From Gammaproteobacteria bacterium (GTDB lineage Bacteria; Pseudomonadota; Gammaproteobacteria; Pseudomonadales; JADFDG01), in NCBI GenBank assembly GCA_018262975.1, contig JADFDG010000001.1:163372-227371 (forward strand): a stretch of DNA of 64,000 nt, read 5' to 3'. The position numbers were made by a program, and so were the translations under genes. Positions 39,511 through 63,198 of this stretch are shown piece after piece (the stretch's first letter is position 1; each line of letters starts with the position of its first letter). Under the pieces are notes generated by a model that saw only the letters and a list, made by a program, of their open reading frames with translations, was not told where the DNA came from and did not search any database.

Positions 39511-39738
39511 TGTATCGGTGGCCGTGCTGTGCGTGGGTCGACACTCCTGACAATTCATGGTGTTGCAATGGAAAGGCTATGTATCTTGCTAAGGAATTCT
39601 GGCTATACTCGGGCGCCTCCTTCTCAGCGGAAGGGGTGGCAATACCCGGTGCAATGCGCGACCGGGACCGTCTGTTTTTTTATGAAAATCAGTCGGTTGC
39701 ACCTAAAAAGAATCCGTACAGACGGGACAAGAAAAATA

Positions 39739-40254
39739 ATGGCCACTTTTGTCCGCATCCTGTTTACCGCCGTTCTGGTGACCCTTGCCGCCACGGGCGC
39801 GCAGGCAGCCGAACAGGCCAGCCGCGACCTGCAGGCACTGAAGCAGAACGTCCTCGACCTCAACCGCGAGCTGACCACCCTCGAGCAGCAATTGCTGTAC
39901 CCGAGCACCCAGGTCGCCATGTTCCTGTCGATCGACGTCGGCACCCCGATCCGCCTGGTCGACATCAACCTCGCCATCGACAACAAGAACGTCGGTTACC
40001 ACTTCTATTCCGACCAGGAATTCCAGGCCCTGACCAAGGGCGGCATCCACCGCCTCTACACCGGCAACCTGTCCAGCGGCGAACACACGCTGCGCGCGAC
40101 CATCACCGGCTACGACCCGCAGGGCAAGGACTACCAGCGCACCACCGCCTACAAGTTCGTCAAGGGCGCCGGCCGCAAGATGATCGAACTGAAGGTGGTC
40201 GACGACGTCGAGACCCGCCAGCACAAGTTCGAATTCAAGGAGTGGAGCGAGTAA
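39739..40254 (+). CDS. Secreted 171-aa protein, first gene of the motor/TPR cluster
   Basis: Signal peptide MATFVRILFTAVLVTLAATGAQA|AEQ, a short coiled coil (LQALKQNVLDLNRELTTLEQQLL), then a beta-rich domain. ATG at 39739 in the frame of track ORF 38110..40254. Confidence 0.7.
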   Translation: MATFVRILFTAVLVTLAATGAQAAEQASRDLQALKQNVLDLNRELTTLEQQLLYPSTQVAMFLSIDVGTPIRLVDINLAIDNKNVGYHFYSDQEFQALTKGGIHRLYTGNLSSGEHTLRATITGYDPQGKDYQRTTAYKFVKGAGRKMIELKVVDDVETRQHKFEFKEWSE

Positions 40255-40300
40255 CTCGCCCGTAGCCCCGCCAGCAACCCGCACAGGCACGGTCTCGCGC

Positions 40301-42223
40301 ATGTCGATACGCCGCCGGAAATTCACGCTGCCCGCCGTGGCCGCCCTGGTAGCCGCCGTCGCCTGCAGTGCGGCCATTGGCGCCCCGGCCTCCAAGCGCA
40401 GCTTCGTGCCCGACGATTACGTCGAGCCCCTCGATCCGCCTGCCGTACTGTTCGGCGAGGTGATGTACGAGTACTACAACAACCGCAACCTGCCGGCGAT
40501 CACCCACCTGCTGATCGCCCGCCAGCAGGGCCTGCTGTCCGAGCGCGACGACTACTCGGAAATGCTGCTCGGCGACCTGTACACCAACTTCGGCCTGGTC
40601 GACCGCGCGCAGGCGATCTTCTCGCGCCTGGTCACCCGCGACATCCTCGCCAAGACCCGCAACGAGACCTGGTTCCACACTGCCGAGCTGCAGTACAACC
40701 AGGGCAAGTACGACGAGGCCGCGCGCATCCTCGAGAACAAGATCGAGAACCTGTCGCCGGCCATCGAGAAGGAGCGGCTGGTGCTGCTCGGCAACATCTA
40801 CATCCTGCGCGGCGAGTACCAGCGCGCGGCCGACCTGCTCTCCTCCGTGAAGGCCGATGACGTGGTCGGCGCCTATGCGCTGTACAACGCCGGCGTCGCC
40901 TTCGTCCGCTCCGGCGAGATCGAGCGTGGCATCCCGCTGCTCAAGCGCGTGCGCGACCTGCCGCCGGGTGACGAGGAAACCAACGCCCTCAAGGACCGCG
41001 CGGCACTGGCCGTCGGTTTCACCTGGCTGCAGAAGAACAACCACGACCTGGCGCGCGAATCCCTGCTGACCATCCGCATGGACGGCCCGTTCACCAACCA
41101 GGCGATGCTCGGCCTGGGCTACGCGAACTTCCAGCGCGGCGACTACAAGAAGGCCCTGCCGCTGTGGCTGGAATTGCTGCAGCGCAACACCTCCGACACC
41201 ACCGTGCAGGAAGCGCTGATGCTGGCGCCGCGGGCCTACGAGGAACTCGGCGACCTGCCGCGCGCCCTGTTCGGCTACCGCTACGCTGCCGACACCCTGC
41301 GCGGCGAACTGAAGAAGGTCGAACGCACCATCGTGCGCATCCGCGAGAGCGACTGGATCGACTCGCTGAGCCCCGAGACGGCGAAGGACTCCGCGATCCT
41401 CACCGACCCGCTGGCGCCGGTGACCGGCTACACGCCGGCCAACATCCCGGAAGCGCCCTACCTGTATGCGCTGTTCGCCTCGAACTCGTTCAGCGAGGAC
41501 TACAAGGTCTACCTGGAGCTGAAGCGCATCGAGAAGTTGCTGGACTTCTGGCAGGCACAGTTGCCCATCTACCAGTCCACGCTCGCCCAGCACCGCGTCC
41601 AGCTGGCCACGCTCAAGCCGCGCCTCGACGACACCATCAGCCGCCGCAAGCGCGACGTGGAAGCACTGCGCGCGCAGGTCGCGCCGCTCAAGGCGCGCAT
41701 CGAGAACGCCATCCGCAAGGGCGATCTCGAACAGACCGCGACCCTGCAGCAACTGGCGCAACTGGACGTCGCGCGCGCCATCGAGGCCAGGCTCGGCAAC
41801 AGCACCGGCGCCCAGGCCGAACGCCTGCGGCGGGTCAAGGGACTGGTGATCTGGGACATCGCCGCCAGCGCCACCGCCCAGCAGCAGCAGGCAGTCAAGG
41901 ACATCGAGATCGTGCGCAACGACATCGAGATGGCTGCGTTGCACGTCGAATCGCTGGAGACCCTCCGCACGGACATCCTGCGGCGCATGGGTCCGGAATA
42001 TGACCAGCGCATCGCCGCTGCCGGCGAGCGCCTGCGCGCAATGAAGGATGAAATCACCCAGCGCCTGAAGGCACAGACCGTGGCCCTGCAGAACCAGGCG
42101 CTCGTGGTACTGGCTGAAAACCGCCGCAACCTGGGCGCGCAGCTCGCCGAGACGCACCTGTCCATCGCCCGCCTGCAGGACACCTCGGTCAGCGAGGCCA
42201 TCGAGAAGAGGAAGCGCCAGTGA
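40301..42223 (+). CDS. Exported TPR + long coiled-coil protein (640 aa)
   Basis: N-terminal signal sequence, at least 7 TPR-like repeats in the first ~330 aa, and a heptad-rich, Gln/Arg/Leu/Ala-rich C-terminal ~260 aa. Confidence 0.8.
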   Translation: MSIRRRKFTLPAVAALVAAVACSAAIGAPASKRSFVPDDYVEPLDPPAVLFGEVMYEYYNNRNLPAITHLLIARQQGLLSERDDYSEMLLGDLYTNFGLVDRAQAIFSRLVTRDILAKTRNETWFHTAELQYNQGKYDEAARILENKIENLSPAIEKERLVLLGNIYILRGEYQRAADLLSSVKADDVVGAYALYNAGVAFVRSGEIERGIPLLKRVRDLPPGDEETNALKDRAALAVGFTWLQKNNHDLARESLLTIRMDGPFTNQAMLGLGYANFQRGDYKKALPLWLELLQRNTSDTTVQEALMLAPRAYEELGDLPRALFGYRYAADTLRGELKKVERTIVRIRESDWIDSLSPETAKDSAILTDPLAPVTGYTPANIPEAPYLYALFASNSFSEDYKVYLELKRIEKLLDFWQAQLPIYQSTLAQHRVQLATLKPRLDDTISRRKRDVEALRAQVAPLKARIENAIRKGDLEQTATLQQLAQLDVARAIEARLGNSTGAQAERLRRVKGLVIWDIAASATAQQQQAVKDIEIVRNDIEMAALHVESLETLRTDILRRMGPEYDQRIAAAGERLRAMKDEITQRLKAQTVALQNQALVVLAENRRNLGAQLAETHLSIARLQDTSVSEAIEKRKRQ

Positions 42224-45200
42224 CGTTTGCTGCCCGCCATCGCCTGCCGTTCCGGCTGACCCCGCTGGCCCTTGCCGCACTGCTGGCAGCCGGTTGCGGC
42301 ACCACCGGAAGCACACCAACGGGCACGGCCGCCACGCAGTCGGCACAGAGCCGTTATGCATCGCAGACACTGGCCGACCTCGAGAGCGTCGAGGTGGAAG
42401 TCCAGCAAGGCAGCATCGAGGAATCCGCGTCCATCGAAGGTGCGCTGGAGAGCTACAAGCAGGCCGTGCAGTTGTTCAACGACCCGGAAAAGCGCGTCGA
42501 GTCACTGCGCCGCATGGCCGACCTTGCCATGGCCGCATCCACCGAGAAGGAAGGTGAAGCCCCGGTTTCGCTGGAAGAAAAGCCGGTGGTGCCGGCGCAG
42601 CTTTCCGAGTCCGAGGAAGTCAAGCTCGACCGCGACATCGACGCCATGCTGTTCAAGAGCTTCATGGAAGGCGCCACCAACGCCAAGTCGCAGGAAGAGA
42701 TGTACCGCATGCTCGACCTCGCCGGTGGCATCGCCCCGGAACTCGAGGGCACCGAGCTGGCGGCCAACTATGACACCGCGGTCATCCTCTACCAGTCGGT
42801 GATCAAGAACACCAAGGATTCGAAGGAAAAAGCCGAGGCCTATTACCTGCTGGCCAAGGCCTATGACATCGGCGGCAAGCACGAGGAGTCCGTCGCCACC
42901 CTCAAGGAACTCGGCCGCCTTTACCCGGACAGCACCTTCTACCTCGAGGCGCAGTTCCGCCTGGGCGAGAGCTACTTCAGCGAGGGTGAGTACGACCTCG
43001 CCACCGCCGCCTACTCCGAGGTCATCCAGGCGGGCGCGACGACCGCATTCTTCGAGCAGTCCATCTACAAGCGCGGCTGGAGCCAGTACAAGGTCTCCGA
43101 GTACGAGAAGGCGCTGGTCGACTTTTTCAGGTTGATTGACCTGGTGTCTGCCCAGCCGGCCCAGGGCAAGGACGCGGACCGCAACGCCCGCCTGCTCGAC
43201 GACACCTTCCGCGTCGCCAGCATGTCGTTCAACAACCTCGACGGCGCGAAGTCGGTGAAGGCCTGGTTCGCCCGCAACGGCCACAAGCCGTACGAGAACC
43301 GCGTGTACCGCGCGCTGGGCGACATCTACGTCAAGCAGGAACGCTACGCGGACGCCGCCGAGACCTACGAGGCGTTCGTCACGCTGTACCCGGATGACGA
43401 CCTGGCGCCGGAATTTTCCTCCAGCGCGATCAAGGCGCTGCAGGACGGCGGCTTCCCGACCCAGGTACTGCCGGCCAAGGAACGCTTCGTGAAGGCCTAT
43501 GGCCTCGACAGCGCGTACTGGAAGAAGCATGCAAAGCAGCGCCAGGAATACCTGCCGCTGCTCAAGTCGCACCTGCTCGACCTGGCACGCCACTACCACG
43601 CCACCGCGCAGAAGTCCGGCGACAGCGCCGGCTTCCTGGTGGCCGCGGGCTGGTACGAGCAGTTGCTGCGCACCGACCCGGCTGATGCCGGCGCGGCCAC
43701 CGTCAACCAGCTGTACGCCGAGGCGCTGTTCTCCGGCAAGGAATTCGCGCGCGCGGTGCGTGAATTCGAACGCACGGCCTACGAATACGCCGGCTACGAC
43801 AAGGCCTCCGAATCGGCCTACTTCGGCCTGGTGGCCTACCAGGCGTGGAGCGACAACCTCGAGAAGGACCAGGCGCGCGCCGCCGAACTGCAGCAACTGC
43901 TCGGCCGCAAGATCGACGCCGGCCTGAAGTTCGCGCGCACCTTCCCGTCGCACGAAAAGACCCCGAAAGTGCTGCAGAGCATCACCGAGGACCAGCTGGC
44001 ACGGAAGGATGTGCCCGGCGCGGTCGCCACCGCGGGTATGCTGGTGTCGCTCAACCCGCCGGCATCCATCGACCTGCAGAAGTACGGCTGGCAGACCATC
44101 GCCAACGGCGAATTCGACCTCGGCCGCCACAAGGTCGCGGAGTTTGCCTACGGCAAGGTGCTGGGCTTCCAGGACCTGACGCCGGCCGAGCGCAAGACCT
44201 ACAACGAGCGACTGGCCGCCAGCATCTACAAGCAGGGCGAGAAACTCATCGCCGAGGGCAAGGAGCTGGAAGGTGCGCAGGAATTCCTGCGCGTGGGCAC
44301 CGTGGTGCCGGACGCCGAGGTGCGCGCCAACGCCGAGTTCGATGCCGCCACCATCTTCCTGAAGAAGGAGCAGTACACGGCTGCCATCCCGGTGCTCGAG
44401 CAGTTCCGCACGCGCTGGCCGAAGAACACCCTGGCCGACACCATCCCCGACAAGCTGGCGCTCGCCTACGAGAAGACCGGCAACTGGGCCGGCGCCGCGC
44501 GCGAGATGGAAACCATCCACGACGTCAACCTGAAGGCGCAGCCGGAACTGGCCCGCGTGGCCTTGTGGCAGGCCGCCGAGCTCACCGGGAAAGCCGGCAA
44601 CGAGGATGGCGAGCTGCGCCTGTACGCGAAGTACGTGGCCGAGAACCCGGCACCGCTCGAAGCGCGCATGGAAGCCCAGTACCGCTTGCTGAAGATCCAC
44701 GAAAAGCGTGGCGACCTGAAGGCACGCGACACCATGCTGGCGGCACTGTCCGCGGGTGCGCGCGGCGCCGGCGGCGATGCCACGCCGCGCACCAACTACC
44801 TGGGCGCATTCGCATCGTTCACGCTGGCCGAGCCCACGTTCCTGCGCTTCACCGAGTACAAGTTGCGTGCGCCGCTGAAGACGTCGCTGGCCGAGAAGCG
44901 CCGCCTGATGCAGTCGGCGCTCGACGCTTACTCCACCACCGCGAAGCTGGGCGTCGCCGAGTACACGTCGGCAGCCCAGTTCCGCACCGCCGAGGTCTAC
45001 CGCATCCTTGCCGCCGACCTGATGTCGTCGGAGCGACCCAAGGGCCTCGACGAACTTGAACTCGAACAGTACGACCTGCTGCTCGAGGAACAGGCCCTGC
45101 CCTTCGAGGACAAGGCGATCGAGCTGTACACGATCAACGCCAACCTCGTGAAGCAGGACGTCTACGACGAGTGGGTCAGGAAGAGCATCAAGGCGCTGGC

Positions 45201-45267
45201 GGTCCTGCAACCGGGTCGCTACGGCAAGAAGGAACAGGCGGAAGACTATGTCGATGTCATTTACTGA
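42220..45267 (+). CDS. Large TPR lipoprotein (1015 aa)
   Basis: Lipobox LLAAGC. TPR / YbgF-like repeats run throughout. The GTG start overlaps the upstream stop (GTGA). Confidence 0.82.
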   Translation: MTFAARHRLPFRLTPLALAALLAAGCGTTGSTPTGTAATQSAQSRYASQTLADLESVEVEVQQGSIEESASIEGALESYKQAVQLFNDPEKRVESLRRMADLAMAASTEKEGEAPVSLEEKPVVPAQLSESEEVKLDRDIDAMLFKSFMEGATNAKSQEEMYRMLDLAGGIAPELEGTELAANYDTAVILYQSVIKNTKDSKEKAEAYYLLAKAYDIGGKHEESVATLKELGRLYPDSTFYLEAQFRLGESYFSEGEYDLATAAYSEVIQAGATTAFFEQSIYKRGWSQYKVSEYEKALVDFFRLIDLVSAQPAQGKDADRNARLLDDTFRVASMSFNNLDGAKSVKAWFARNGHKPYENRVYRALGDIYVKQERYADAAETYEAFVTLYPDDDLAPEFSSSAIKALQDGGFPTQVLPAKERFVKAYGLDSAYWKKHAKQRQEYLPLLKSHLLDLARHYHATAQKSGDSAGFLVAAGWYEQLLRTDPADAGAATVNQLYAEALFSGKEFARAVREFERTAYEYAGYDKASESAYFGLVAYQAWSDNLEKDQARAAELQQLLGRKIDAGLKFARTFPSHEKTPKVLQSITEDQLARKDVPGAVATAGMLVSLNPPASIDLQKYGWQTIANGEFDLGRHKVAEFAYGKVLGFQDLTPAERKTYNERLAASIYKQGEKLIAEGKELEGAQEFLRVGTVVPDAEVRANAEFDAATIFLKKEQYTAAIPVLEQFRTRWPKNTLADTIPDKLALAYEKTGNWAGAAREMETIHDVNLKAQPELARVALWQAAELTGKAGNEDGELRLYAKYVAENPAPLEARMEAQYRLLKIHEKRGDLKARDTMLAALSAGARGAGGDATPRTNYLGAFASFTLAEPTFLRFTEYKLRAPLKTSLAEKRRLMQSALDAYSTTAKLGVAEYTSAAQFRTAEVYRILAADLMSSERPKGLDELELEQYDLLLEEQALPFEDKAIELYTINANLVKQDVYDEWVRKSIKALAVLQPGRYGKKEQAEDYVDVIY

Positions 45268-46078
45268 CCGCGCTCCGCGCCTGCTGATCGCCGCGACGCT
45301 GGCCGCGGCGTTGGCGGCCTGCAGCAGTGCGCCGAAGCAACAGGGTGGCGACACCGCCGGCGTCGACAACGTGAACGTGATCAAGCCCGTGCGCGCCCAG
45401 GCCGCCGCGCCCGCCGCGGTTGCCAGCGACACCGCCCACGTGACCACCGTGACCGCCAGTCCGCAGGCGCAGGCCGCCGCGCAGCAGGCGGCACCCGAGT
45501 ACTTCGCGGCCATGCAGCTGTTGCAGGCCGGCAAGCTCGACGAGGCACAGAAAGCGTTCGCTGCGCTGGCGGTGAAATTCCCGAGCCTGTCCGGCCCGGT
45601 GGTCAACCAGGCGCTGATCGCGCTGCGCAACGAGCGCTGGGACGACGCGCTGGCACTGGCCGACCGCGCGCTCAAGGTCAATGCGCGCAACCCGTTCGCC
45701 TGGAACATGCGCGGCATGGCACTGCGCGAGCAAGGCAAGTTCGCCGACGCCCGCAAGTCCTATGAGAGCGCGCTGGCCATCGACCCCAATTACGCCAAGG
45801 CACACTTCAACCTCGGCGTGCTGGCCGACCTGTACCTGCAGGACCTGCCGCTGGCACTGGCGCACTACGAGAAGTACCAGTCGCTGCAGCGCAAGCCCGA
45901 CCAGGCCGTAGGCAACTGGATTGCCGACCTGCGCAACCGCCTGGGGCTGCCCGCCCCGGCAGCTCCCGCAGCTCCGGCAGCACCTGCACCGGCAGCAGCG
46001 CCGGCCGGCGGCGAATCCGCGCCGGCGGCGGGCGACCCCGAAACCGGCACCGATACCATCCCGGCCCAGGCAGGGTGA
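45248..46078 (+). CDS. TPR lipoprotein (276 aa) with Pro/Ala-rich C-terminus
   Basis: Lipobox LAAC, 3-4 TPRs (NPFAWNMRGMALREQGKFADARKSYESALAIDPNY...) and a PAPAAPAAPAAPAP tail. The start overlaps the upstream gene by 20 nt. Confidence 0.8.
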   Translation: MSMSFTDRAPRLLIAATLAAALAACSSAPKQQGGDTAGVDNVNVIKPVRAQAAAPAAVASDTAHVTTVTASPQAQAAAQQAAPEYFAAMQLLQAGKLDEAQKAFAALAVKFPSLSGPVVNQALIALRNERWDDALALADRALKVNARNPFAWNMRGMALREQGKFADARKSYESALAIDPNYAKAHFNLGVLADLYLQDLPLALAHYEKYQSLQRKPDQAVGNWIADLRNRLGLPAPAAPAAPAAPAPAAAPAGGESAPAAGDPETGTDTIPAQAG

Positions 46079-46083
46079 ACGAC

Positions 46084-46395
46084 ATGAACAGACTCGCACG
46101 CATGGCCACCGTCCTCGCCGCCCTCCTCGCCGTCCCGGCGTGGGCAGCCGACCCGCAGCCCGCCGCCAAGCCGGGCAGCAACGGCAAGGCAGACGCGCTC
46201 TCCACCAACGTCATCGGCTCCCAGGAAGCACCCACGGTGCTCAACGTCGTGCCGTGGAAGGACAAGGAAGTGAAACTGGAGAAGAAATCTCCGACCACCT
46301 CCATTCTCAACCAGGTCCTGCAGCCACTGGATCGTGACGTACTGCGCCGCGAGGTGCAGTACTTCCGCAGCCTGCAGGAAAACAAGACCAACTGA
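46084..46395 (+). CDS. Small secreted protein (103 aa)
   Basis: Signal peptide MNRLARMATVLAALLAVPAWA|ADP. An alternative GTG at 46075 overlaps the upstream stop (GTGA). Confidence 0.65.
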   Translation: MNRLARMATVLAALLAVPAWAADPQPAAKPGSNGKADALSTNVIGSQEAPTVLNVVPWKDKEVKLEKKSPTTSILNQVLQPLDRDVLRREVQYFRSLQENKTN

Positions 46396-46482
46396 CAAAC
46401 CCCGGCGCGTCCACCGCGCCTCGCTCCACCCGCCAACACCACAACCACAAACTGACATTCGATTCACATACAGGAGATACCC

Positions 46483-47160
46483 ATGGCAACTGCAGCCGAC
46501 CCCGGTTTCATGATGAGCAGCGTCCGCTTCTTCCAGGATGGCGGCCCCTGGATGTGGCCCATCCTCGTGGTATTCCTGCTCGGCATTGCCCTGGTCGTCG
46601 AACGTTTCATTTACCTGCAGATGGTGACCGGCAAGAACAGCCGCGTGTGGGGTGAGATCTACCCGCTGCTTGCCAAGGGCCAGTTCAAGCAGGTCATGGA
46701 AATTGCCAAGGGCAACGACACCTTCATTTCCGGCATCATCGGTGCCGGCCTGACCCGCGCCACCATTACCCGCCGCCACGAGGATATCGGCCTGGCGATG
46801 GAGGAGTCGCTGATGGAGGTCATGCCGCGACTCGAGCAGCGCACCCCTTACATCGCCACGCTGGCCAACATCGCCACCCTGCTTGGCCTGCTCGGCACCA
46901 TCATGGGCCTGATCGATGCGTTTACCGCCATCGCCAGTGCCGACCCGGCACAGAAAGCAGCCATCCTGTCGTCGTCGATTTCGGTCGCGATGAACACCAC
47001 GGCGTTCGGCCTGATTGCCGCCATCCCGCTGATGCTGGCCTTCACCTACCTGCAGTCGAAGACGGCGAAAGTCGTCGAGAGCATGGAGATGGCCTCCGTC
47101 AAACTGCTGAACATCTACCGCCAGCTGTCCGCTGCCTCCGAGAAGAACCAGGGTGACTGA
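46483..47160 (+). CDS. MotA/TolQ/ExbB-family proton channel
   Basis: Three TM segments and the conserved LLGLLGTIMGLI...TTAFGLIAAIPLMLAFTYL core. AGGAG lies 6 nt upstream of the ATG. Confidence 0.9.
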   Translation: MATAADPGFMMSSVRFFQDGGPWMWPILVVFLLGIALVVERFIYLQMVTGKNSRVWGEIYPLLAKGQFKQVMEIAKGNDTFISGIIGAGLTRATITRRHEDIGLAMEESLMEVMPRLEQRTPYIATLANIATLLGLLGTIMGLIDAFTAIASADPAQKAAILSSSISVAMNTTAFGLIAAIPLMLAFTYLQSKTAKVVESMEMASVKLLNIYRQLSAASEKNQGD

Positions 47161-47219
47161 CCGGCGGGCCTGCCCAGGCTCGCCTTTCTACAGTGCCCGG
47201 ATGATCCGGAGGACCGAAC

Positions 47220-47762
47220 ATGAGTTCACGCAAGAAACCGCGTGTAACCGACGTCGAGCTGAACATCACGACCTTCATGAACCTGATGGTCGTCCTGATT
47301 CCGTTCCTGCTGCTCGACGCGGTATTCACGCAGATGTCGATATTGCAGCTGACGCTGCCCTCTTCGGCCGAGGCACCGCCTTCGCCGGAGGAGGACCGCA
47401 AGCCGTTCTCGCTGGAAGTGCTGATCTACAAGAACCGCTATGAGCTGGTGGACCGCAAGTCCGAATCCGTGCTCTCGGTGATTCCCGTTGCCGCCGACGG
47501 CAAGCACGATACCGCCAAGCTTCACGAAACGCTGGTGCGCCTGAAGGGCCGCGCCGACGAGTTCGGTGAGCCGGTACGCGACATTGCCATCCTCTGCGAG
47601 AAGGACACGCCCTACGAGATCCTCATCATGACGATGGATACCGTGCGCGTGACCGATACCATGGTGAACGGCACGTCGATCAAGAAGGAGCTGTTCCCGG
47701 ACATCTCCATCGGCACGGCACCGGCCGACCAGTCGGGTGTGGCACCGGGAGGTGCGGCATGA
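47220..47762 (+). CDS. ExbD/TolR-family protein 1 (Asn at the conserved TM Asp position)
   Basis: Single N-terminal TM (ELNITTFMNLMVVLIPFLLL) and an ExbD-like periplasmic domain. GGAGG RBS. Confidence 0.85.
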   Translation: MSSRKKPRVTDVELNITTFMNLMVVLIPFLLLDAVFTQMSILQLTLPSSAEAPPSPEEDRKPFSLEVLIYKNRYELVDRKSESVLSVIPVAADGKHDTAKLHETLVRLKGRADEFGEPVRDIAILCEKDTPYEILIMTMDTVRVTDTMVNGTSIKKELFPDISIGTAPADQSGVAPGGAA

Positions 47763-48289
47763 GCCTGCAGAAGCCTACTGCCAAGCAGCGGCGCATGCAG
47801 CGCCGCGCCAAGCACCTGGCACCGACGACGTTGAGCCTGACGTCCCTGATGGACATCTTCACGATCCTGCTGTTCTTCCTGCTGGTGAGCGTTTCGACGT
47901 CGCAGAAAATGCCCGACGAGCGCTACATCCTGCTGCCGAAATCCAGCGCCGAGGAGTTGCCCAAGGAGACGCTCACGGTCGAGGTCAGCGGCAACACGAT
48001 CATCGTGCAGGGCCAGCTGATTGCCGAAACCACGCAGGTCGCCGCCCAGGAAGGCGTATTGATCGCCAAGCTCAAGGAAGAACTGGACTACCAGGCCGCC
48101 AAGTCGGCAGCGCCGCTCAATGAGGCCGGCGTTCCGGAGCGGGAAGTCACGATCCTCATGGACAGCAAGGTTCCCTATGCCGTCCTCGACAAGATCATGA
48201 AGACCTGCATGGTGACCGAGTACAGCAAGATCTCGTTCGCGGTGATGCAGGACAAGAAGAAGCCGGCCACCGGCGGGGAGGGCTCCTGA
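47759..48289 (+). CDS. ExbD/TolR-family protein 2 (conserved TM Asp present)
   Basis: TM segment LSLTSLMDIFTILLFFLLV with Asp32. ATGA overlap with the upstream gene; GGGAGG RBS. Confidence 0.85.
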   Translation: MSLQKPTAKQRRMQRRAKHLAPTTLSLTSLMDIFTILLFFLLVSVSTSQKMPDERYILLPKSSAEELPKETLTVEVSGNTIIVQGQLIAETTQVAAQEGVLIAKLKEELDYQAAKSAAPLNEAGVPEREVTILMDSKVPYAVLDKIMKTCMVTEYSKISFAVMQDKKKPATGGEGS

Positions 48290-49254
48290 TGAGCAGCCCA
48301 CGTCCCGCCATGCCCTCGCGCGGCATTGCCTTTGTTTCCGGCTACCTGCCCTGGGATACGGTCGGTTCCGAGGAAAAACGTGCGCGCTGGCTCCTGTTGG
48401 CCGCCCTGTTGCTCGCGTTCGTGCTGCTCGTGGTGCTGCAGAGCATTACCCTGCCGCCGGTCGACCGCGCGCAGGCCGAGAAGATGCCCGAACGGCTCGC
48501 CAAGCTGGTGATGGAGAAGAAGAAGGAACCGCCGCCGCCGCCGCCCAAGGAAGAAGTGGTGAAGGAAGAGGAAAAGCCCAAGGAAGAGAAGCCGAAGGAG
48601 GAAAAGCCGGTCGAGGAGAAGGTGCAGAAGGCCCGTGAAAAGGCCAGCAAGGCACTGGCCGAGGCCAAGGAAGAACTCGCGGCCATGCAGGACCTCGCCG
48701 CGGCATTCGACTTCGGTGCAGACCAGCCGCTGTCCAAGGCCGGCGCAGCCAGTCCCTCGGAAGGCGCGCTGTCGCGCGACCTGATCACCAGCCGCACCGG
48801 CAAGGGTTCGGGTGGCGTGAACATCGGCACCGCGTCCAGCGGTGGCGGTGGCGCCGGCGTGGCCGGTGGCGGCAAGCTCGGCGGTGCGCAGGTTGCCAAG
48901 GTGGATTCCAACATCACCGAGGGCGGCATCGGCGCGACGCGCAAGAGCGCCAGCGGCAAGCTGGAGCGTACCGAGGAAGAGATCCGCCGCGTGATGGACC
49001 GCAACAACGGTGCCTTGCAGGCGATCTACCAGCGTGCGCTGCGCAGCAACCCGACGCTCAAGGGCGCCATCGTCCTGCGCCTGGTGATCGCGCCGGACGG
49101 CTCGGTGACCTCGGCTGACCTGGTTTCCAGCGAACTGGGCGACGCGGAGACCGAGAAGAAGCTGCTCACCCGCATCAAGGCCATCAACTTCGGCGCCATC
49201 GAGGGCGTGGCCGTGTGGGATGACAAGTACACGCTCAACTTCTTCCCGAGCTGA
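48289..49254 (+). CDS. TonB-like energy transducer with AgmX/PglI-type C-terminal domain (321 aa)
   Basis: N-terminal TM (WLLLAALLLAFVLLVVL), a Pro/Glu/Lys-rich linker (KKKEPPPPPPKEEVVKEEEKPKEEKPKEEKPVEEK), a Gly-rich region, and a TonB_C-like C-terminus (ALRSNPTLKGAIVLRLVIAPDGSV...). TGATG overlap with the upstream gene. Confidence 0.82.
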   Translation: MSSPRPAMPSRGIAFVSGYLPWDTVGSEEKRARWLLLAALLLAFVLLVVLQSITLPPVDRAQAEKMPERLAKLVMEKKKEPPPPPPKEEVVKEEEKPKEEKPKEEKPVEEKVQKAREKASKALAEAKEELAAMQDLAAAFDFGADQPLSKAGAASPSEGALSRDLITSRTGKGSGGVNIGTASSGGGGAGVAGGGKLGGAQVAKVDSNITEGGIGATRKSASGKLERTEEEIRRVMDRNNGALQAIYQRALRSNPTLKGAIVLRLVIAPDGSVTSADLVSSELGDAETEKKLLTRIKAINFGAIEGVAVWDDKYTLNFFPS

Positions 49255-49278
49255 CGTGTAGTGCGTGTGTAACACCGA

Positions 49279-49308
49279 CAAGGGGCGCTGCGGCGCCCCT
49301 TGTTTTTT
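49279..49308 (+). terminator. Rho-independent terminator ending the motor operon
   Basis: CAAGGGGCGC, loop TGCG, GCGCCCCTTG, followed by TTTTTT. It lies 25 nt after the stop at 49254. Confidence 0.85.
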
Positions 49309-49348
49309 GCGGTATCTTGTCGTCGTTCAGAGACGGCCGGAGTCCGCC

Positions 49349-49867
49349 ATGCGCCACACCACCCTGTTTTCCCGTGCCTGCCTGCTTGCCGCGGTCGTGG
49401 GCCTCACCGCCTGTATTCCGCCACCGGCGGACATCGGCGTCGACTACTCCGGCCCCATCTACCGCAAGCCCGGCGCCGATGCACCGCGCACGCAGTCCTC
49501 GTCACTGCCGGCACAACCGGCCGGCAGCGAGTGCGCGAAACTCGAGGAAACGCCGACCCGCAAGCGCAGCGCCTGTGGCGTGCGCGAGATCATGACGCGC
49601 TACAACGGCGGCCTGCAGATGCTTTACCAGCGCCGACTGGTCGACAACCCGCGCCTGCAGGGACAGGTCGTGTTGCGCCTGAACATCGCCGCCGATGGCA
49701 GCGTGCAGGCCTGCGACATCGCCTCCAGCACCCTCAACGACAGCGAACTCGACCGGCAGATCGCCGCCTACGTGCGCACCATCAACTTCGGGGCGCTCGA
49801 AAACGTACCGGCCTGGGCTGACACCTACACGCTGGAACTGACGCCGCCGGTGGCCGGCAAGCGCTGA
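49349..49867 (+). CDS. Lipoprotein carrying a second AgmX/PglI-type TonB_C-like domain (172 aa)
   Basis: Lipobox GLTAC. The C-terminal ~90 aa align by eye with the C-terminus of the 321-aa protein (LYQRRLVDNPRLQGQVVLRLNIAADGSV...TINFGALE...TYTLEL). ATG at 49349 with GGAG upstream. Confidence 0.75.
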   Translation: MRHTTLFSRACLLAAVVGLTACIPPPADIGVDYSGPIYRKPGADAPRTQSSSLPAQPAGSECAKLEETPTRKRSACGVREIMTRYNGGLQMLYQRRLVDNPRLQGQVVLRLNIAADGSVQACDIASSTLNDSELDRQIAAYVRTINFGALENVPAWADTYTLELTPPVAGKR

Positions 49868-54766: not shown

Positions 54767-56482
54767 TCAGTGATCGACCGCCGCCCCGGCACCACGCGGC
54801 ACGCGGATGTGCTCGACCAGGTCCTGCACGTGCTGCGGCGGCGGCGCGGTGAGGTGGCTGACCACCATCGCCACGGCGAAGTTCAGCAGCATGCCGACCA
54901 CGCCGATGCCTTCCGGCGAGATGCCGAGGAACCAGTTGGCCTTCACGTTCTCCGCCATCGGCGCCATGAACACGCCCTTGAAGTAGAGGATGTAGGCGAT
55001 GGTGAAGGTGAGGCCCACCACCATGCCGGAGATCGCCCCCCAGTTGTTCATGCGCTTGTAGAAGATACCCAGCACGATGCACGGGAAGAACGATGCCGCA
55101 GCGAGGCCGAAGGCAAAGGCCACCACCTCCGCCACGAAGCCCGGCGGATAGATGCCGAGGATGCCGGCCACCACCACCGCCACCGCCGCGGCGATGCGCG
55201 CCGCCACCAGTTCCTGCTTGTCGGTGATGTGGGGCATCACCATCTTCTTGAGCAGGTCGTGGGAGATGGCCGCGGAGATCACCAGCAGCAGGCCGGCCGC
55301 GGTGGACAACGCCGCCGCCAGCGCACCGGCAGCCACCAGCGCGATCACCCACGGCGGCAGGTTGGCGATTTCCGGGTTGGCCATCACGATGATGTCCTTG
55401 TCGATCTTCATCTCGTTGCGCTCGTCACCGGCGTAGAACATGCGGCCATCGCCGTTCTTGTCTTCCCACGAGATCAGGCCGGTCTTCTCCCAGTTGGTGA
55501 TCCAGGACGGCGCCTCGGTGTACAGCGTGCCCTGCTGGTCCTTGCCGTTGATGGTGTCGATCATGTTCAGGCGGGCGAACCCGGCGATGGCCGGCGCCGT
55601 GGTGTACACCAGCATGATGAACAGCAACGCCCAGCCGGCCGAGCGGCGGGCATCGCGCACCTTCGGCACGGTGAAGAAACGCACGATCACGTGCGGCAGG
55701 CCGGCGGTACCCACCATCAGTGCCAGTGCAATGCAGAACACGTCGATCATGTCCTTGGTGCCGCTGGTATAGGCGGCAAAGCCCAGTTCCGTGCTCAGCC
55801 CGTCGAGTTTCTGCAGCAGGTGCTGCCCGGAACCATCAGTGAGTTCGGCACCGAAGCCGAACTGCGGGATCACGTGGCCGGTCATCATGATCGACAGGAA
55901 GAACGCCGGCACCATGTAGGCGAACAGCAGTACGCAGTACTGGGCCACCTGGGTATAGGTGATGCCTTTCATGCCGCCAACCACCGCGTAGAAGAACACC
56001 AGCGCCATGCCGATGATCACGCCGGTGGTCACGTCCACCTCGAGGAAGCGCGCGAACACGATCCCGACACCGCGCATCTGTCCGGCCACGTAGGTGAACG
56101 ACACGAAGATGGCACAGATCACCGCCACCAGCCGCGCCAGGTCCGAGTAGTAGCGGTCGCCGACGAAATCGGGCACGGTGAATTTGCCGAACTTGCGCAG
56201 GTACGGCGCCAGCAGCAAGGCCAGCAGCACGTAGCCGCCGGTCCAGCCGAGCAGGTACACCGAGCCGTCATAGCCCATGAAGGAAATGAGGCCGGCCATG
56301 GAAATGAACGACGCGGCGCTCATCCAGTCGGCGGCGGTGGCCATGCCGTTGGTGACCGGGTGCACGCCGCCACCGGCGACGTAGAATTCCTTGGTGGATC
56401 CGACACGGGCCCACCAGGCAATGCCGATGTAGAGGGCGAACGACAGGCCGACGATGAGGTAGGTCCAGGCTTGGATGGACAT
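54767..56482 (-). CDS. actP: Cation/acetate symporter (SSS family)
   Basis: 571 aa with ActP-like N-terminus EFYVAGGGVHPVTNGMATAADWMSAASFISMAG and about 14 TM segments. Confidence 0.9.
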   Translation of the reverse strand: MSIQAWTYLIVGLSFALYIGIAWWARVGSTKEFYVAGGGVHPVTNGMATAADWMSAASFISMAGLISFMGYDGSVYLLGWTGGYVLLALLLAPYLRKFGKFTVPDFVGDRYYSDLARLVAVICAIFVSFTYVAGQMRGVGIVFARFLEVDVTTGVIIGMALVFFYAVVGGMKGITYTQVAQYCVLLFAYMVPAFFLSIMMTGHVIPQFGFGAELTDGSGQHLLQKLDGLSTELGFAAYTSGTKDMIDVFCIALALMVGTAGLPHVIVRFFTVPKVRDARRSAGWALLFIMLVYTTAPAIAGFARLNMIDTINGKDQQGTLYTEAPSWITNWEKTGLISWEDKNGDGRMFYAGDERNEMKIDKDIIVMANPEIANLPPWVIALVAAGALAAALSTAAGLLLVISAAISHDLLKKMVMPHITDKQELVAARIAAAVAVVVAGILGIYPPGFVAEVVAFAFGLAAASFFPCIVLGIFYKRMNNWGAISGMVVGLTFTIAYILYFKGVFMAPMAENVKANWFLGISPEGIGVVGMLLNFAVAMVVSHLTAPPPQHVQDLVEHIRVPRGAGAAVDH

Positions 56483-56493
56483 GATGCGCGCCC

Positions 56494-56760
56494 TCAGTCC
56501 TCGTGGACGTCATGTTCCCGGTCGAGCCGGTTCATGCGCCACGTGTAGTAGAAGATCAGCAGGGTGAAGACGAAGATCGATCCCTGCTGCGCGAACCAGA
56601 ACCCCAGCTTGAAGCCGAAGAACTGGATGTGGTTGAGCGGGCCGGCAAACAGGATGCTGGCGCCGAAGCCGAAAATGGCCCAGATCGCCAGGCAGATGAA
56701 CAGCACGCGCAGGTTCGCGCGCCAGTAGGCCTGCCCGGACGAGTCGTCGCGTTGGCTCAT
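56494..56760 (-). CDS. yjcH: DUF485 inner-membrane protein (YjcH-like)
   Basis: 88 aa with two TM segments, immediately upstream of actP as in the E. coli acs-yjcH-actP operon. ATG at 56760. Confidence 0.82.
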   Translation of the reverse strand: MSQRDDSSGQAYWRANLRVLFICLAIWAIFGFGASILFAGPLNHIQFFGFKLGFWFAQQGSIFVFTLLIFYYTWRMNRLDREHDVHED

Positions 56761-56837
56761 GGTGGTCTCCCTCGGGCGCAGCCGCGCCTTCTTGTTTTGG
56801 CGATCCCACGCTAGCGCAGGGCGGCATGGCCCCGCCC

Positions 56838-56853
56838 TTAGACCTTGGTCGAA
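56838..56853. promoter_or_regulatory. Inverted repeat TTAGACC-TT-GGTCGAA in the yjcH-actP / crbS divergent promoter region (candidate CrbR operator)
   Basis: Near-palindrome. Its reverse complement, CTTCGACCAAGGTCTAAG, matches two sites upstream of acs (63151-63166 and 63182-63198). Confidence 0.45.
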
Positions 56854-56929
56854 GCCACGGCCGGCGGCCGCCGATGGACGGCCGCGCGACGCTGTTCCAT
56901 AGTCGGGATGTCGCCCACCGGGAGCCTCC

Positions 56930-59900
56930 ATGCCAGCCTGGCTGCTGCCACTGACCGCACTGGTCTACATCGCGCTGCTGTTCGCGCTTGCCTTCTGGGG
57001 CGATCGCCAGGTGGGGCGCTTCAGCCAGCGCCAGCGCATGGTGCTGTTCAGCCTGACCATCGCCGTCTACTGCACGTCGTGGACTTTCTACGGTGCGGTG
57101 GGCGCGGCGGTGCAGGACGGCTGGTCGTTCCTGCCCATCTATCTCGGGCCGCTGCTGCTGTTGCTGTTCGGTCACCGCCTGTGGGAGCGACTGGTGCTGG
57201 CCAGCCGCACGCAGGGCATCACCTCCATCGCCGACTTCATCGCCGCTCGCTACGGCAAGGCCCCGCATCTCGCCGCACTGGTGGCGTTGTTCGCGGTCAT
57301 CGGCGTATTGCCATACATCGCCCTGCAACTGAAGGCCGTCTCCCTGAGTGCGCAGGTGATGGCCGACCACGGCATGGCCATGGAGTTGCTGCCCGGTGAC
57401 ACGGCACTGTGGACGGCGCTGCTGCTGGCCCTGCTGGCGATCCTGTTCGGCACCCGCCGGCTCGACGCCAGCGAACACCACCTCGGGCTGATGCTGGCCA
57501 TCGGCCTCGAATCGCTGGTGAAACTGGTGGCGCTGGTGGCCGTGGCACTGTTCGCGCTCGACGCACTTCCGCTGGACACGCTCTGGCAGGACGAACGCGT
57601 GCGCCACCTGGCGGCACCGGGCGACCTGCCACCGGGCTTCCTCGCGCAGACCCTGCTGGCCTTCGCCGCGTTGTTCTGCCTGCCTCGCCAGTTCCACGTC
57701 GGCGTGGTCGAATGCGACGACGTGCGCCACGTGCAGGGCGCCCGCTGGCTGTTCGGTGGCTACCTGGTGCTGGTCACCCTCGCCGTTCTGCCGATTGCCG
57801 CCGTTGCGCTCACCGATCCGCGGCTGGCGGGCCTCAACCCGGATATCGCCGTACTGGCCCTGCCACTGGCGGCCGGCCAGGATGGCCTGGCGCTGCTGGC
57901 CTTCCTCGGCGGCTTCTCCGCCGCCACCGGCATGGTGATCGTGGCGACCGTGGCGCTGTCGACCATGGTCAGCAACGACCTGCTCGTTCCCGCCCTGCTG
58001 CGCCTGCAAAGGTTGCGCCTCGGCGAGCGACGGCAGATGAAAGGGATGCTGCTGGCCGCCCGGCGGCTGTCGATCATCGCCATCGTGCTGCTCGGCTATG
58101 GCGGTTACCGGTTGATCGACCAGTACCAGCAACTGGCCAGCATCGGCCTGCTGGCCTTCGCCGCAGTAGCCCAGTTCGCGCCGGCCATCATCGGCGGCCT
58201 GTACTGGCGCGGCGGCAGCCGCGTTGGCGCCACCGCCGGGCTGTGCGCCGGTTTTGCGTTGTGGGTCTACACGCTGCTGCTGCCGGCGCTGCTGCGCAGC
58301 GGCGGCGCCGGCCCCGAGTGGTTGCTGGCCGGCCCGTTCGGCATCGACTGGCTGCGTCCGGAGTCGCTGTTCAAGCTCGCCGGCTGGGATGCGCTGACAC
58401 ACGGAGTGTTCTGGTCGTTGCTGGCCAATACCAGCCTCTACGTGCTGCTGTCGCTGCGCTTCCGGCCTACGCTCGGCGAGCAGATCCAGGCCACGCCTTT
58501 CCTCGACCCGTGGGCAACGCAGGACACCCCGGTGACACCGGCGGAATGGGCGCGACTGCCGGTCAGCGACCTGCTGGCACTGGCCGGGCGCATCGTCGGT
58601 GACGGCCCGGCTACGCAGGCATTTACCGTGTTCGCGCAGCAGCGCGGGGAAGCGCTCGATACCCGTCGCGTCGCGGATGCCTCCTGGTGGCAACTCACCG
58701 AGCGCCTGCTCGCCGGCGCCATCGGCGCCCAGTCGGCACGCGCGATGATCACCACCACGCTGCGCGGCAGCGGCATGGAAATCGGCCAGGTCATGGCCTT
58801 GCTCGACCAGACCTCGCAGCGCCAGCGCTTCAACCGCGACCTGCTGGCGACCATGATGGAAAACATCACCCAGGGCATCAGCGTGGTGGATGCCGACCTG
58901 TGCCTGGTCGCCTGGAACCGCCGTTACCTGGAACTGTTCGACTACCCGCCGGGCATGGTCTACGTCGGCTGCCCGGTCAGCGATCTCATCCGCTACAACG
59001 CCCTGCGCGGAGAGTGCGGCCCCGGCGACGTGGACGCGCACGTACGCAAGCGCATCGACCACATGCGTGCCGGCAGCGCGCACGTGTTCGAGCGCGTGCG
59101 CAGCGACGGCCGCGTGATCGAGATGCGCGGCCAGCCGGTCCCCGGCGGCGGTTTCGTCACCACCTTCAGCGACGTCACCCATTTCAAGCGCACCGAACAG
59201 GAACTGGCGGAAGCCAAGGGCGTGCTCGAGCAGCGCGTCGAACAACGCACCACCGAGTTGCGCGCGGCGCTGGCAGCGCAGGAAGAAGCGCGCCGGCACG
59301 CGGTGGAGGCCAACCTGTCGAAGACGCGCTTCATCGCGGCCGCCAGCCACGACCTGCTGCAGCCGTTGAATGCCGCCCGGTTGTTCGTTGCCGCGCTCGA
59401 ACAGCAGCACCCCGACGACAGCACCGGCGAACTGGTGCAACGCCTGGACGGCTCGCTGCGCGGCGCGGAGGAGCTGCTGTCGGCGCTGCTGGAAATCTCC
59501 CGGCTGGACGCCGGCGCGCTCACCCCGACGGTGACCGCGGTACCGCTGGGCGAACTGTTCGACAGCCTGCGCACGCAGTACGCCCCGCTGGCCGAGCAGC
59601 GCGGCCTGGCCTTGCACGTGGTAGCCACCAGCGCCTGGGTCTCCAGCGACCGCCAGTGGCTGCGCCGCATCCTGCAGAACCTGCTGAGCAACGCCCTGCG
59701 CTACACCCGTGAAGGACGCATCACCCTGGGCGTGCGACGCCGTGGCGACCGCGTGCGCATCGAGGTTCGCGATACCGGCCCGGGCATTCCGCCGGGCCGG
59801 CAGTCGCAGATCTTCGAGGAATTCCACCGCGGCGGCGAGGCATCGCCCTGGGGCGAGAAAGGCATGGGCCTTGGCCTCGCCATCGTCGATCGCATGGCGC

Positions 59901-60391: not shown

Positions 60392-60412
60392 ACACCCGAC
60401 CCGGACGACGGC

Positions 60413-61087
60413 TCAGTCCTCTTCCACCACCGGCAGGCGGGTCGACGGATCGAGTTGCAGGCGCGAGGCCGCCACCACCGCCTGCGTCCGGTTGCTGGCA
60501 CCGAGTTTCTTCAGGATCGCCGTCATGTGCGCCTTCACCGTGGCCTCCGACACGCCGAGCTCCCAGGCAATCTGCTTGTTGAGCAGGCCGTCGGCCAGCA
60601 TCATCAGGACACGGAACTGCTGCGGCGTGAGATCGCGCAAGCGACGCGCGATGTCCGCCTCGTCGGCCGGCAGCCGGTGGCCGGCCGCGCGCGCGTCGGG
60701 TGGCATCCAGGTATCGCCGTCCAGCACCACCTGGATCGCCTCGCCCATCTGCGCAGTGGGCAGCGATTTGGGAATGTAGGCGCTGGCGCCGTGCGCCATC
60801 GCGCGCCGCATCACCTCGGCTTCCTCGTTGCCGGACACCACGATCACTGGTACCTGCGGGTAATGCGCCCGCACGAACACCAGCCCGGAAAAGCCGCTGG
60901 CCCCGGGCATGTGCAGGTCGAGCAGCAACAGGTCTATGTCGCTGTCGCGCTCCAGCGCTGACTGCAGCGCGGCAATGCTGTCCACCTCGGCGATGCGCGC
61001 CGATGGCAACAACGTCGCCGCGGCGCGGTGCAGCGCGTCGCGGAACAGCGGGTGATCATCGGCGATCAGCAGCTTGAGCATCTTCAT
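60413..61087 (-). CDS. crbR: LuxR/NarL-family response regulator (CrbR-like)
   Basis: REC domain (LLIADDHPLF...DLLLLDLHMPG) plus a LuxR HTH (LTPQQFRVLMMLADGLLNKQIAWELGVSEATVKAH). Confidence 0.82.
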   Translation of the reverse strand: MKMLKLLIADDHPLFRDALHRAAATLLPSARIAEVDSIAALQSALERDSDIDLLLLDLHMPGASGFSGLVFVRAHYPQVPVIVVSGNEEAEVMRRAMAHGASAYIPKSLPTAQMGEAIQVVLDGDTWMPPDARAAGHRLPADEADIARRLRDLTPQQFRVLMMLADGLLNKQIAWELGVSEATVKAHMTAILKKLGASNRTQAVVAASRLQLDPSTRLPVVEED

Positions 61088-61144
61088 GCCCCCACTGTAG
61101 CAGCCGGCGGGCAGGCGGCTGGAGTGCAGCCCGCCTGCCGTTCG

Positions 61145-63094
<1,950 letters not shown>

Positions 63095-63150
63095 GGGCTG
63101 TCCTCCTCGGGAATGGCCCCGAGTATCGGCAGCACCGCCGGCAGGCGGTA

Positions 63151-63198
63151 TTAGCCAAAGGTCTAAACACCTGCCGCCGCCTTCGACCAAAGGCCAAT
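63151..63198. promoter_or_regulatory. Two related imperfect inverted repeats upstream of acs / porin (candidate CrbR operators)
   Basis: TTAGCC-AAA-GGTCTAA (63151-63166) and TTCGACC-AAA-GGCCAAT (63182-63198). They lie 57-104 nt upstream of the acs ATG. Confidence 0.45.

Follow-up and report, generated by a model that had tools for sequence, protein, structure and literature searches.

The gliding motility machine of Myxococcus xanthus (Agl-Glt) and its spore-coat counterpart (Agl-Nfs) are built on a common motor logic, with an AglR channel, AglQ and AglS plugs, and a GltG transducer that binds GltD together with GltE and GltC. In 2011, Luciano et al. (PLoS Genet 7:e1002268; PMC3169522) sorted the 14 gliding genes of Myxococcus into a Group A, confined to Myxococcales and Bdellovibrionales, and a Group B (gltC, gltD, gltE, gltG, aglR, aglQ and aglS), which they named the "core complex", of unknown function, and described as ancestral to the gliding machine. 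This core was later termed a standalone "basal transport machinery" of many gammaproteobacteria (Wartel et al. 2013; PMC3858216). Here, we describe a cluster of ten same-strand genes in a 64,000-nt stretch of contig JADFDG010000001.1 (hereafter the window), the first nine of which probably encode such a standalone Agl-Glt/Nfs core complex, an ion-driven Tol/Ton-like motor wired to outer-membrane-associated tetratricopeptide repeat (TPR) scaffolds. This kind of system has been known since 2011 and is common in gammaproteobacteria; the window is a further instance of it, not a discovery.

The published gene order, gltC-gltD-gltE-(small extra gene)-aglR-aglQ-aglS-gltG, is matched gene for gene by the window. 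In Cellvibrio (CJA_3319-3312; Table S3 of PMC3169522), the proteins measure 660 (GltC), 964 (GltD), 244 (GltE), 231 (AglR), 181 (AglQ), 173 (AglS) and 323 amino acids (aa) (GltG), with tag 3316 standing between GltE and AglR; in the window, the series reads 640, 1015, 276, 103, 225, 180, 176 and 321 aa. Similar series are listed for Methylibium, Marinobacter, Saccharophagus, Shewanella frigidimarina, Teredinibacter, Thioalkalivibrio and Geobacter (PMC3169522). Core membership was judged by gene order, sizes and domain models, the TPR proteins being matched to GltC, GltD and GltE by size and position. The window holds an AglR-type channel (PF01618, three transmembrane (TM) segments) that is not a TolQ or ExbB equivalog, two different ExbD/TolR-type proteins beside it, and a GltG-type transducer with a single TM segment, a Pro-rich linker and an AgmX/PglI domain; the gltC-gltD-gltE TPR genes and the small gene before aglR lie in the same operon. 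Because order and sizes match, the transducer has the AgmX/PglI domain and aligns with GltG, and the TolQ, TolR, ExbB and ExbD scores stay below their cut-offs, we filed the block as a member of the core family. This supports the proposal of an initial annotation of this DNA, which had described an Agl/Glt-core-like, proton-motive-force-driven machine that spans the envelope and is distinct from Tol-Pal and from iron-uptake TonB systems; its statement that Luciano et al. reported such a core in other proteobacteria, with function unknown, was correct.

With the core of Luciano et al., the window has in common the same eight genes, their order and near-identical sizes, the single operon, the AgmX/PglI domain and a gammaproteobacterial host. 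It differs by an additional beta-sandwich protein (gene 1) as a ninth conserved member, by a lineage-specific lipoprotein with a second TonB-like domain (gene 10), and by a host from an uncultured clade outside the 2011 survey; most lineages also add a TlpA-like thioredoxin, which the window lacks. These additions, together with an Asn/Asp asymmetry of the plug, the breadth of the distribution and a cross-link to Fibrobacter, are what is new here, and we regard them as useful leads rather than surprises.

All ten open reading frames (ORFs) listed in the initial annotation were recovered on the + strand at the coordinates that it had claimed, with the domains that it had given them (Table 1). 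They have a GC content at third codon positions of 0.79-0.91 and the codon-position GC pattern of real genes in 67% GC sequence, and all ten proteins were searched for domains with Pfam and NCBIfam profiles. Neighbouring genes overlap by 4, 20, 4 and 1 bases, which fits translational coupling, and the largest gap is 94 bases. An intrinsic terminator before gene 10, also called by the initial annotation, was confirmed by folding (minimum free energy of the 101-nt region -49.1 kcal/mol, z = -4.6). The pattern-based terminator scan had missed this hairpin, which was found by reading and folding the sequence. A pattern scan of the upstream intergenic region gave no match to the sigma-70 consensus, and Rfam models identified no regulatory RNA in or upstream of the operon. 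The nine-gene block is a real, tightly packed and well-conserved operon.

Table 1. Features of the core-complex operon and its borders (positions in the window; E values and bit scores from Pfam and NCBIfam models)
Feature	Coordinates	Strand	Evidence or remark
Upstream intergenic region, 180 bp, divergent from an xni-like exonuclease gene	39559..39738	+	presumed promoter region (role inferred)
Gene 1, 171 aa, secreted	39739-40254	+	signal peptide; AlphaFold2 model
Gene 2, GltC-like, 640 aa, periplasmic TPR protein	40301-42223	+	TPR_16 E = 7e-17 and others
Gene 3, GltD-like, 1015 aa, TPR lipoprotein, putative central scaffold	42220-45267	+	TPR_2 E = 4e-16; lipobox LLAAGC
Gene 4, GltE-like, 276 aa, TPR lipoprotein	45248-46078	+	TPR_16 E = 6e-17; lipobox LAAC
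Gene 5, 103 aa, secreted	46084-46395	+	106 aa from alternative GTG at 46075
Gene 6, AglR-like MotA/TolQ/ExbB channel, 225 aa	46483-47160	+	PF01618 E = 5e-28
Gene 7, AglQ-like ExbD/TolR paralogue, 180 aa	47220-47762	+	PF02472 E = 7e-11
Gene 8, AglS-like ExbD/TolR paralogue, 176 aa	47759-48289	+	PF02472 E = 3e-15
Gene 9, GltG-like transducer, 321 aa	48289-49254	+	NF033768 63.4 bits (cut-off 40)
Intrinsic terminator closing the nine-gene operon	49277-49308	+	12-bp GC-rich stem, 4-nt loop, T6
Gene 10, 172-aa lipoprotein	49349-49867	+	NF033768 54.3 bits (cut-off 40); lipobox LTAC

A scan of one genome per GTDB species for relatives of the GltD-like 1015-aa protein found them in at least 568 species. 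The nearest are uncultured Pseudomonadota metagenome-assembled genomes (73-96% identity), followed by Alcanivoracaceae at about 47-50%, the nearest named relatives; a Xanthomonadales host could not be demonstrated. The best 80 of these at least 568 loci served as a synteny sample, against which all ten window proteins were searched with tblastn. Wherever the contig is long enough, genes 1-9 have the same order and strand, except in two loci (L008 and L010) where a block with genes 1-2 lies downstream of the GltG-like gene. The nine-gene synteny extends over Alcanivoracaceae, Ketobacter, Steroidobacteraceae, Woeseiaceae, Kangiellaceae, Permianibacter, Chromatiaceae and Acidiferrobacterales, and in essentially every related locus the motor genes are accompanied by the TPR and small secreted genes, as the initial annotation had expected.

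In the closest relative (L001), the operon is flanked by NAD kinase-pdxB and epmC-MATE. The upstream neighbours NAD kinase and pdxB recur in Alcanivorax, Ketobacter and other loci, and epmC again follows the operon in L009 and L011. These conserved flanking genes indicate that the operon is vertically inherited, and a genomic island was rejected on this ground. A gene for a TlpA-like protein of the AhpC/TSA-Redoxin type, with a WCGPC motif, stands directly upstream of gene 1 on the same strand in 63/80 loci (L008, L010 and within L012-L080) and travels with genes 1-2 in the two rearranged loci; it is absent from the window, from L001 and from the Alcanivorax loci. When conserved Cys pairs were sought in the periplasmic parts, the proteins of genes 1, 2 and 5 proved essentially Cys-free, and no clear disulfide target emerged. 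In 26 loci of Steroidobacteraceae type (L012, L015, L021-L024 and others), we also observed a conserved 116-aa ORF that starts 3 bp after the GltG-like gene and matches no Pfam family.

The AglR-like channel has three TM segments and its best solved relatives are TolQ proteins (E = 2.7e-11), but it reaches only 70 bits with the TolQ model (cut-off 221) and 49 bits with the ExbB model (cut-off 206). The plugs likewise score about 20 bits with ExbD models (cut-offs 123-216) and about 20 bits with tolR (cut-off 127). Their two genes are adjacent and overlap by 4 bp. At the proton-relay position of its TM segment, the AglQ-like protein has Asn21; of 67 aligned sequences, the window included, 39 have Asn and 28 have Asp here. 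The corresponding Asp32 of the AglS-like protein is invariant (61/61 aligned sequences, window included). An invariant Asp in one plug and an Asn in the other suggest that, in this lineage, the plug may be an asymmetric heterodimer with one protonatable residue. We also noted that 56/65 AglS-like orthologues have a single Cys beyond the first 30 residues, at about residue 148 in the periplasmic part of the window protein, which could be a redox-sensitive or cross-linking site.

Three TPR proteins precede the motor genes. The size and position of the GltC-like protein equal those of CJA_3319, Mpe_A1224 and TERTU_3747, assigned to MXAN_2541, and its orthologue is found in 77/80 loci. The initial annotation had described it as a TPR and coiled-coil protein: the TPRs hold, and the coiled coil in the C-terminal half, which is charged and helical by composition, has crude support. 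The GltD-like protein equals in size and position CJA_3318 and others, assigned to MXAN_4870. The GltE-like protein has an Ala/Pro-rich tail and matches the GltE model NF033758 weakly (30.7 bits, cut-off 225); where the TPR proteins match the GltE and Tgl models, they do so through generic TPR similarity. Export signals and lipoboxes were read from the N-terminal sequences, and lipoboxes in orthologues were counted by pattern and inspected by eye. The claim that every non-motor component has a signal peptide or a lipobox stands for the N-terminal signals and for the lipoboxes of genes 3, 4 and 10; the putative lipobox of the GltC-like protein at Cys22 is not conserved, its orthologues having mostly ordinary signal peptides. 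The GltE-like lipobox is kept in 68/77 orthologues.

The TolQ-like channel and the TPR types bear on a second reading, in which the operon would encode a second Tol-Pal-type system acting in outer-membrane invagination at division and in envelope integrity. Indeed, TolQ is the best match of the channel among both solved structures and NCBIfam models, TPRs of the YbgF/CpoB and BamD types occur in the GltD-like and GltC-like proteins, the C-terminal domain of TolA (TolA-III) is among the fold matches of the TonB-like domain, and outer-membrane lipoproteins belong to the set. More broadly, the block has in common with Tol-Pal and TonB-ExbBD a stator from the proton-motive-force-driven 5:2-type family, an envelope-spanning organisation, a transducer that joins one TM segment, a Pro-rich linker and a C-terminal domain of the TonB/TolA fold, and TPR partners of the CpoB/YbgF type. 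However, its scores are far below all equivalog cut-offs; the GltD-like protein itself reaches 72.5 bits with the CpoB (ybgF) model (cut-off 90.1). Two non-identical plugs replace one, three large or medium TPR proteins are obligatory, and no TolB, Pal (WD40/OmpA) or TolA is encoded in or near the cluster. The 2011 phylogenies also group such clusters with aglRQS and the glt genes, not with tol genes (PMC3169522). We therefore consider a second Tol-Pal system unlikely, and the standalone core complex the better account of this motor. A distinct candidate, an anti-phage defence system with MotAB-like parts (for example Zorya), found no support: none of the ten proteins matches PADLOC models at E <= 0.001.

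The transducer (gene 9) has a cytoplasmic N-terminus of about 30 residues, one TM segment (residues ~30-54) and no FHA domain. Its linker is 66% Pro, Glu and Lys over residues 61-125 and is followed by a Gly/Ala/Ser-rich segment and the AgmX/PglI C-terminal domain, which had been proposed for both genes 9 and 10 and exceeds its cut-off in each (Table 1). Against the GltG model NF033760, the protein scores 53.8 bits (E = 1.2e-14) over model positions 375-633 of 650, that is, linker and C-terminal domain; against tonB_Cterm (TIGR01352) it scores 17.6 bits (cut-off 27.1), and Pfam TonB_C gives no match. By these profile scores, it appears closer to GltG than to TonB.

A specialised TonB-ExbB-ExbD system would nevertheless have a transducer of the same fold. 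In that case, the motor would energise TonB-dependent transporters encoded elsewhere, whose substrates might for instance be large or hydrophobic, and the TPR proteins would be accessories. The TonB fold of the C-terminal domain, the membership of channel and plugs in the ExbB and ExbD Pfam families, and gene 10, which just reaches the tonB_Cterm cut-off (27.3 vs 27.1 bits), are in line with it, and Raut et al. read the Fibrobacter proteins FSU_2400-2403, discussed below, as a TonB system for cellodextrin uptake (PMC6851124). Several observations speak against it: gene 9 reaches neither TonB_C threshold and agrees better with the GltG model, the channel and plugs miss the ExbB and ExbD equivalog cut-offs by the margins given above, and a homologous domain binds GltD in the Myxococcus model (PMC11761067). 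In addition, neither the window nor the set of genes conserved next to the 80 loci includes a TonB-dependent receptor. The window also has no Tol-Pal or siderophore gene and no motor paralogue or second motor copy; these absences cover its ~45 other predicted genes, so that the lack of receptor, iron or siderophore, and tol genes reported for the vicinity holds for the whole window. Finally, in every lineage the motor is inherited together with three TPR proteins and two small secreted ones. To our knowledge, TonB systems need no such partners. Altogether, we judge a TonB-type uptake system about as improbable as a second Tol-Pal, and retain the core complex.

Two small secreted proteins complete the nine-gene unit. 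Gene 1 encodes a protein with a signal peptide, a long helix that ends near residue 53 and an eight-strand beta-sandwich (AlphaFold2 pLDDT 86.6). Searched against the folds of the Protein Data Bank, this model gave nothing better than E = 1.6e-3 at a TM-score of 0.35, and no informative match; at curated cut-offs, no Pfam or NCBIfam family was found, the sole match being a sub-threshold one to FtsL_2. At E <= 1e-10, 966 clusters (50% identity) belong to its family, and the orthologue lies directly upstream of the GltC-like gene in 76/80 loci. Gene 1 is a genuine conserved ninth member, not named in the core list of 2011. Some members of its family are labelled "AraC family transcriptional regulator" in RefSeq and UniRef, a wrong label for a secreted beta-sandwich protein.

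The protein of gene 5 has a variable N-terminus, a conserved core of about 55 aa (VLxIVPWK...LLDEVLAPVDRDVFRREV) and no match to a Pfam or NCBIfam family. Its orthologue lies between the GltE-like and AglR-like genes in 70/80 loci, and this position equals the locus-tag gaps CJA_3316, Mpe_A1227 and Maqu_1599 in the published core. Gene 5 thus appears to correspond to the "additional gene" of that core. It is also a positional analogue of M. xanthus gltF, which follows gltE, the likeness being one of position only.

Gene 10 consists of a lipobox, a disordered linker and an AgmX/PglI, TonB-like C-terminal domain that is 46% identical to that of gene 9 (E = 1e-30). While it just passes TIGR01352, it scores 19.0 bits with Pfam TonB_C (cut-off 24.6). 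Residues 71-160 of its AlphaFold2 model have pLDDT values of ~83-96, and in a Foldseek search the first 22 matches are all C-terminal domains of TonB, HasB, FusB or TolA-III (TM-scores up to 0.67 over 70-90 residues); the model thus confirms a predicted TonB/TolA fold for this putative paralogue of the gene 9 domain. Gene 10 as a conserved member was rejected, since 62/80 tblastn matches are cross-matches to the C-terminal domain of the GltG orthologue; among 64 loci, a separate copy exists only in the closest relative. Its family is small, with 28 close relatives (>=54% identity) among the 29 matches at E <= 0.001, and NCBI names members "AgmX/PglI C-terminal domain-containing protein". By sequence comparison, gene 10 is most simply a lineage-specific paralogue of the GltG-like C-terminal domain. 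The ten-gene system of the initial annotation is accordingly reduced: genes 1-9 are the conserved unit.

In comparison with the Myxococcus machines, the window retains the seven core components, and the pair formed by genes 9 and 10 parallels the two TonB-like domains per machine provided there by GltG and GltJ. These common components are what a gliding-motility motor like the full Agl-Glt machine would share with this operon. Nonetheless, the Group A parts (the barrels GltA, GltB and GltH, GltK, CglB, GltF, GltI and GltJ) were not found in the cluster or the window, and the cluster has no AglZ/MglA; at the position of GltF stands the small, apparently unrelated protein of gene 5. The GltG-like protein has only some 30 residues before its TM segment, where the Myxococcus protein has a cytoplasmic FHA domain. 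Moreover, core genes are insufficient for motility and most of their hosts are not gliders (PMC3169522). A gliding function is thus very improbable here, far more so than either of the two rival systems above, and a core complex without the gliding parts is the reading that we keep.

A model of how such a core might work can be drawn from TolQR and ExbBD structures and from an AlphaFold model of the Myxococcus machine (PMC11761067). In the latter, AglR5-AglQS holds the TM helix of GltG, whose linker wraps a crevice of GltD. The N-terminal domain of GltD is bound on opposite faces by the TonB-like domains of GltG and GltJ and its C-terminal domain by GltE, while GltC and GltF link to the outer-membrane module; an AglR-GltG interaction was also observed by two-hybrid (PMC3169522). 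While the parts list, its conservation and the folds come from our analyses, stoichiometry, contacts and energy flow are transferred from these systems. By analogy, five AglR-like subunits would surround an AglQ-like/AglS-like heterodimer (a 5:2 stator), in which only the AglS-like subunit would retain a protonatable Asp in this lineage. Proton flow would turn or pull the TM helix of the GltG-like protein, whose Pro/Glu/Lys-rich linker would cross the peptidoglycan and, with the TonB-like domain, bind the GltD-like TPR lipoprotein. The latter would be joined by the GltE-like lipoprotein, the GltC-like TPR/helical protein and the products of genes 5 and 1, and gene 10 might supply a second TonB-like domain, as GltJ does in Myxococcus. 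In the last and least certain step, the energy would move or remodel an outer-membrane-associated partner complex encoded elsewhere. The output might be a Tol-like coupling of inner and outer membranes that organises surface complexes or controls vesiculation, rather than nutrient import or gliding.

Our literature search found no paper assigning a function to the standalone core in gammaproteobacteria, only Myxococcus work and unrelated papers, and no paper was found through the Cellvibrio, Marinobacter, Saccharophagus and Shewanella locus tags. Only the locus tags of Fibrobacter yielded relevant papers. Table S3 of Luciano et al. lists for Fibrobacter succinogenes Fisuc_1892 (GltC), 1893 (GltD), 1894 (AglR), 1896 (AglS) and 1897 (GltG) (PMC3169522). 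The mapping used in Fibrobacter proteomics equates Fisuc_1892 with FSU_2397 and Fisuc_1894-1897 with FSU_2400-2403; we equated Fisuc_1893 with FSU_2398 by position and mass (146.7 kDa, which fits 1292 aa). The TonB-like and ExbD-like proteins occur only in envelopes of cellulose-grown cells (PMC4619616), and all these proteins rise on cellulose (PMC6851124). The GltC-like FSU_2397 was found in an outer membrane vesicle (OMV) complex that also includes FSU_2396 (the neighbouring OmpA protein), cellulases and a fibro-slime protein (PMC6851124). The core is part of an eight-gene cluster, FSU_2396-2404, for which high expression in vivo was reported and a role in OMV formation suggested (PMC8092306). 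The authors of these studies read the motor as a TonB uptake system and did not cite the Agl/Glt connection.

Like the window, the S85 cluster FSU_2396-FSU_2404 combines TPR proteins and a MotA/ExbD/TonB-like motor. It differs in that it belongs to another phylum, has no listed GltE homologue, has an adjacent OmpA-family gene and comes with experimental data (cellulose induction, OMV complex), while the gammaproteobacterial clusters are known from their genes. Among the hosts, several attack insoluble substrates: Alcanivorax, Ketobacter and Peristeroidobacter agariperforans in our 80 loci, and Cellvibrio, Saccharophagus, Teredinibacter and Marinobacter in the 2011 survey. Others (Woeseia, Chromatiaceae, Thiodiazotropha) have no obvious use of such substrates. 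As a leading guess, held with low confidence, the core may organise or energise an outer-membrane surface complex or control vesiculation. That the standalone core would be a third functional class of Ton/Tol-like motor, which ancestrally energised or organised an outer-membrane surface complex and of which gene 1, the TlpA-like partner and the lipoprotein TonB-like domain would be undescribed parts, is a tentative idea that we would not expect to hold in full, though we give it more credit than either the Tol-Pal or the TonB reading.

Several points weigh against these proposals. The comparison with the M. xanthus GltC, GltD, GltE and AglRQS proteins was made through size, position and profile models, and the TPR matches to GltE and Tgl are generic ones. 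The lipobox of the GltD-like protein varies among orthologues, so that lipidation of this presumed scaffold is not conserved. The Asn that replaces Asp in the AglQ-like plug of this lineage could mean an altered ion coupling. Stoichiometry, the GltG-GltD contact and the roles given to genes 1, 5 and 10 are drawn by analogy. No outer-membrane beta-barrel or cargo gene lies in the window or is conserved beside the 80 loci, and without such a client gene the output is a guess. As for the Fibrobacter comparison, the 2011 trees place Fibrobacter with the deltaproteobacterial clade, not with the gammaproteobacterial one (PMC3169522).

The job of the core outside myxobacteria has been an acknowledged question since 2011, and its answer would show where the gliding and spore-coat machines came from and add a third job to the Tol/Ton motor family. 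The window sharpens this question, without answering it, to that of a nine-gene, vertically inherited unit of hundreds of gammaproteobacterial species. If the surface-complex proposal were true, the core would serve, for example, in adhesion to or processing of cellulose, agar or oil, or in controlled vesicle release, and myxobacterial gliding and spore-coat assembly would be later elaborations of that ancestral job. The link to Fibrobacter joins the myxobacterial literature to proteomics that points at outer-membrane complex and vesicle biology. Cultured and tractable hosts are at hand in Alcanivorax, Aliikangiella and Peristeroidobacter, to which the 2011 survey adds Cellvibrio, Marinobacter and Shewanella frigidimarina.

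Outside the cluster, the window carries ordinary chromosomal genes, among them gyrA, serC, pheA, tyrA-aroA, rpsA, lapB, pyrF, scpAB, a tRNA synthetase gene, NAD kinase, pdxB, epmC, a MATE pump gene and acs. Two genes for outer-membrane proteins, an outer-membrane phospholipase A1 (PldA; 5722-6588) and a partial DcaP-like protein (63232-63999), are not linked to the operon in other loci. At 2191-5721, a membrane protein of the FA_desaturase family (449 aa) is encoded beside a Fer2/FAD/NAD reductase and a divergent AraC-type regulator, a layout that resembles an alkane or xylene monooxygenase-type hydroxylase module and would suit a hydrocarbon-degrading, Alcanivorax-like host. Finally, the region 54767-63358 carries a DUF4212 gene, a sodium:solute symporter, a 1162-aa hybrid histidine kinase (PAS_7), a LuxR-type response regulator and an acetyl-CoA synthetase, arranged like a CrbS/CrbR acetate-switch regulon.

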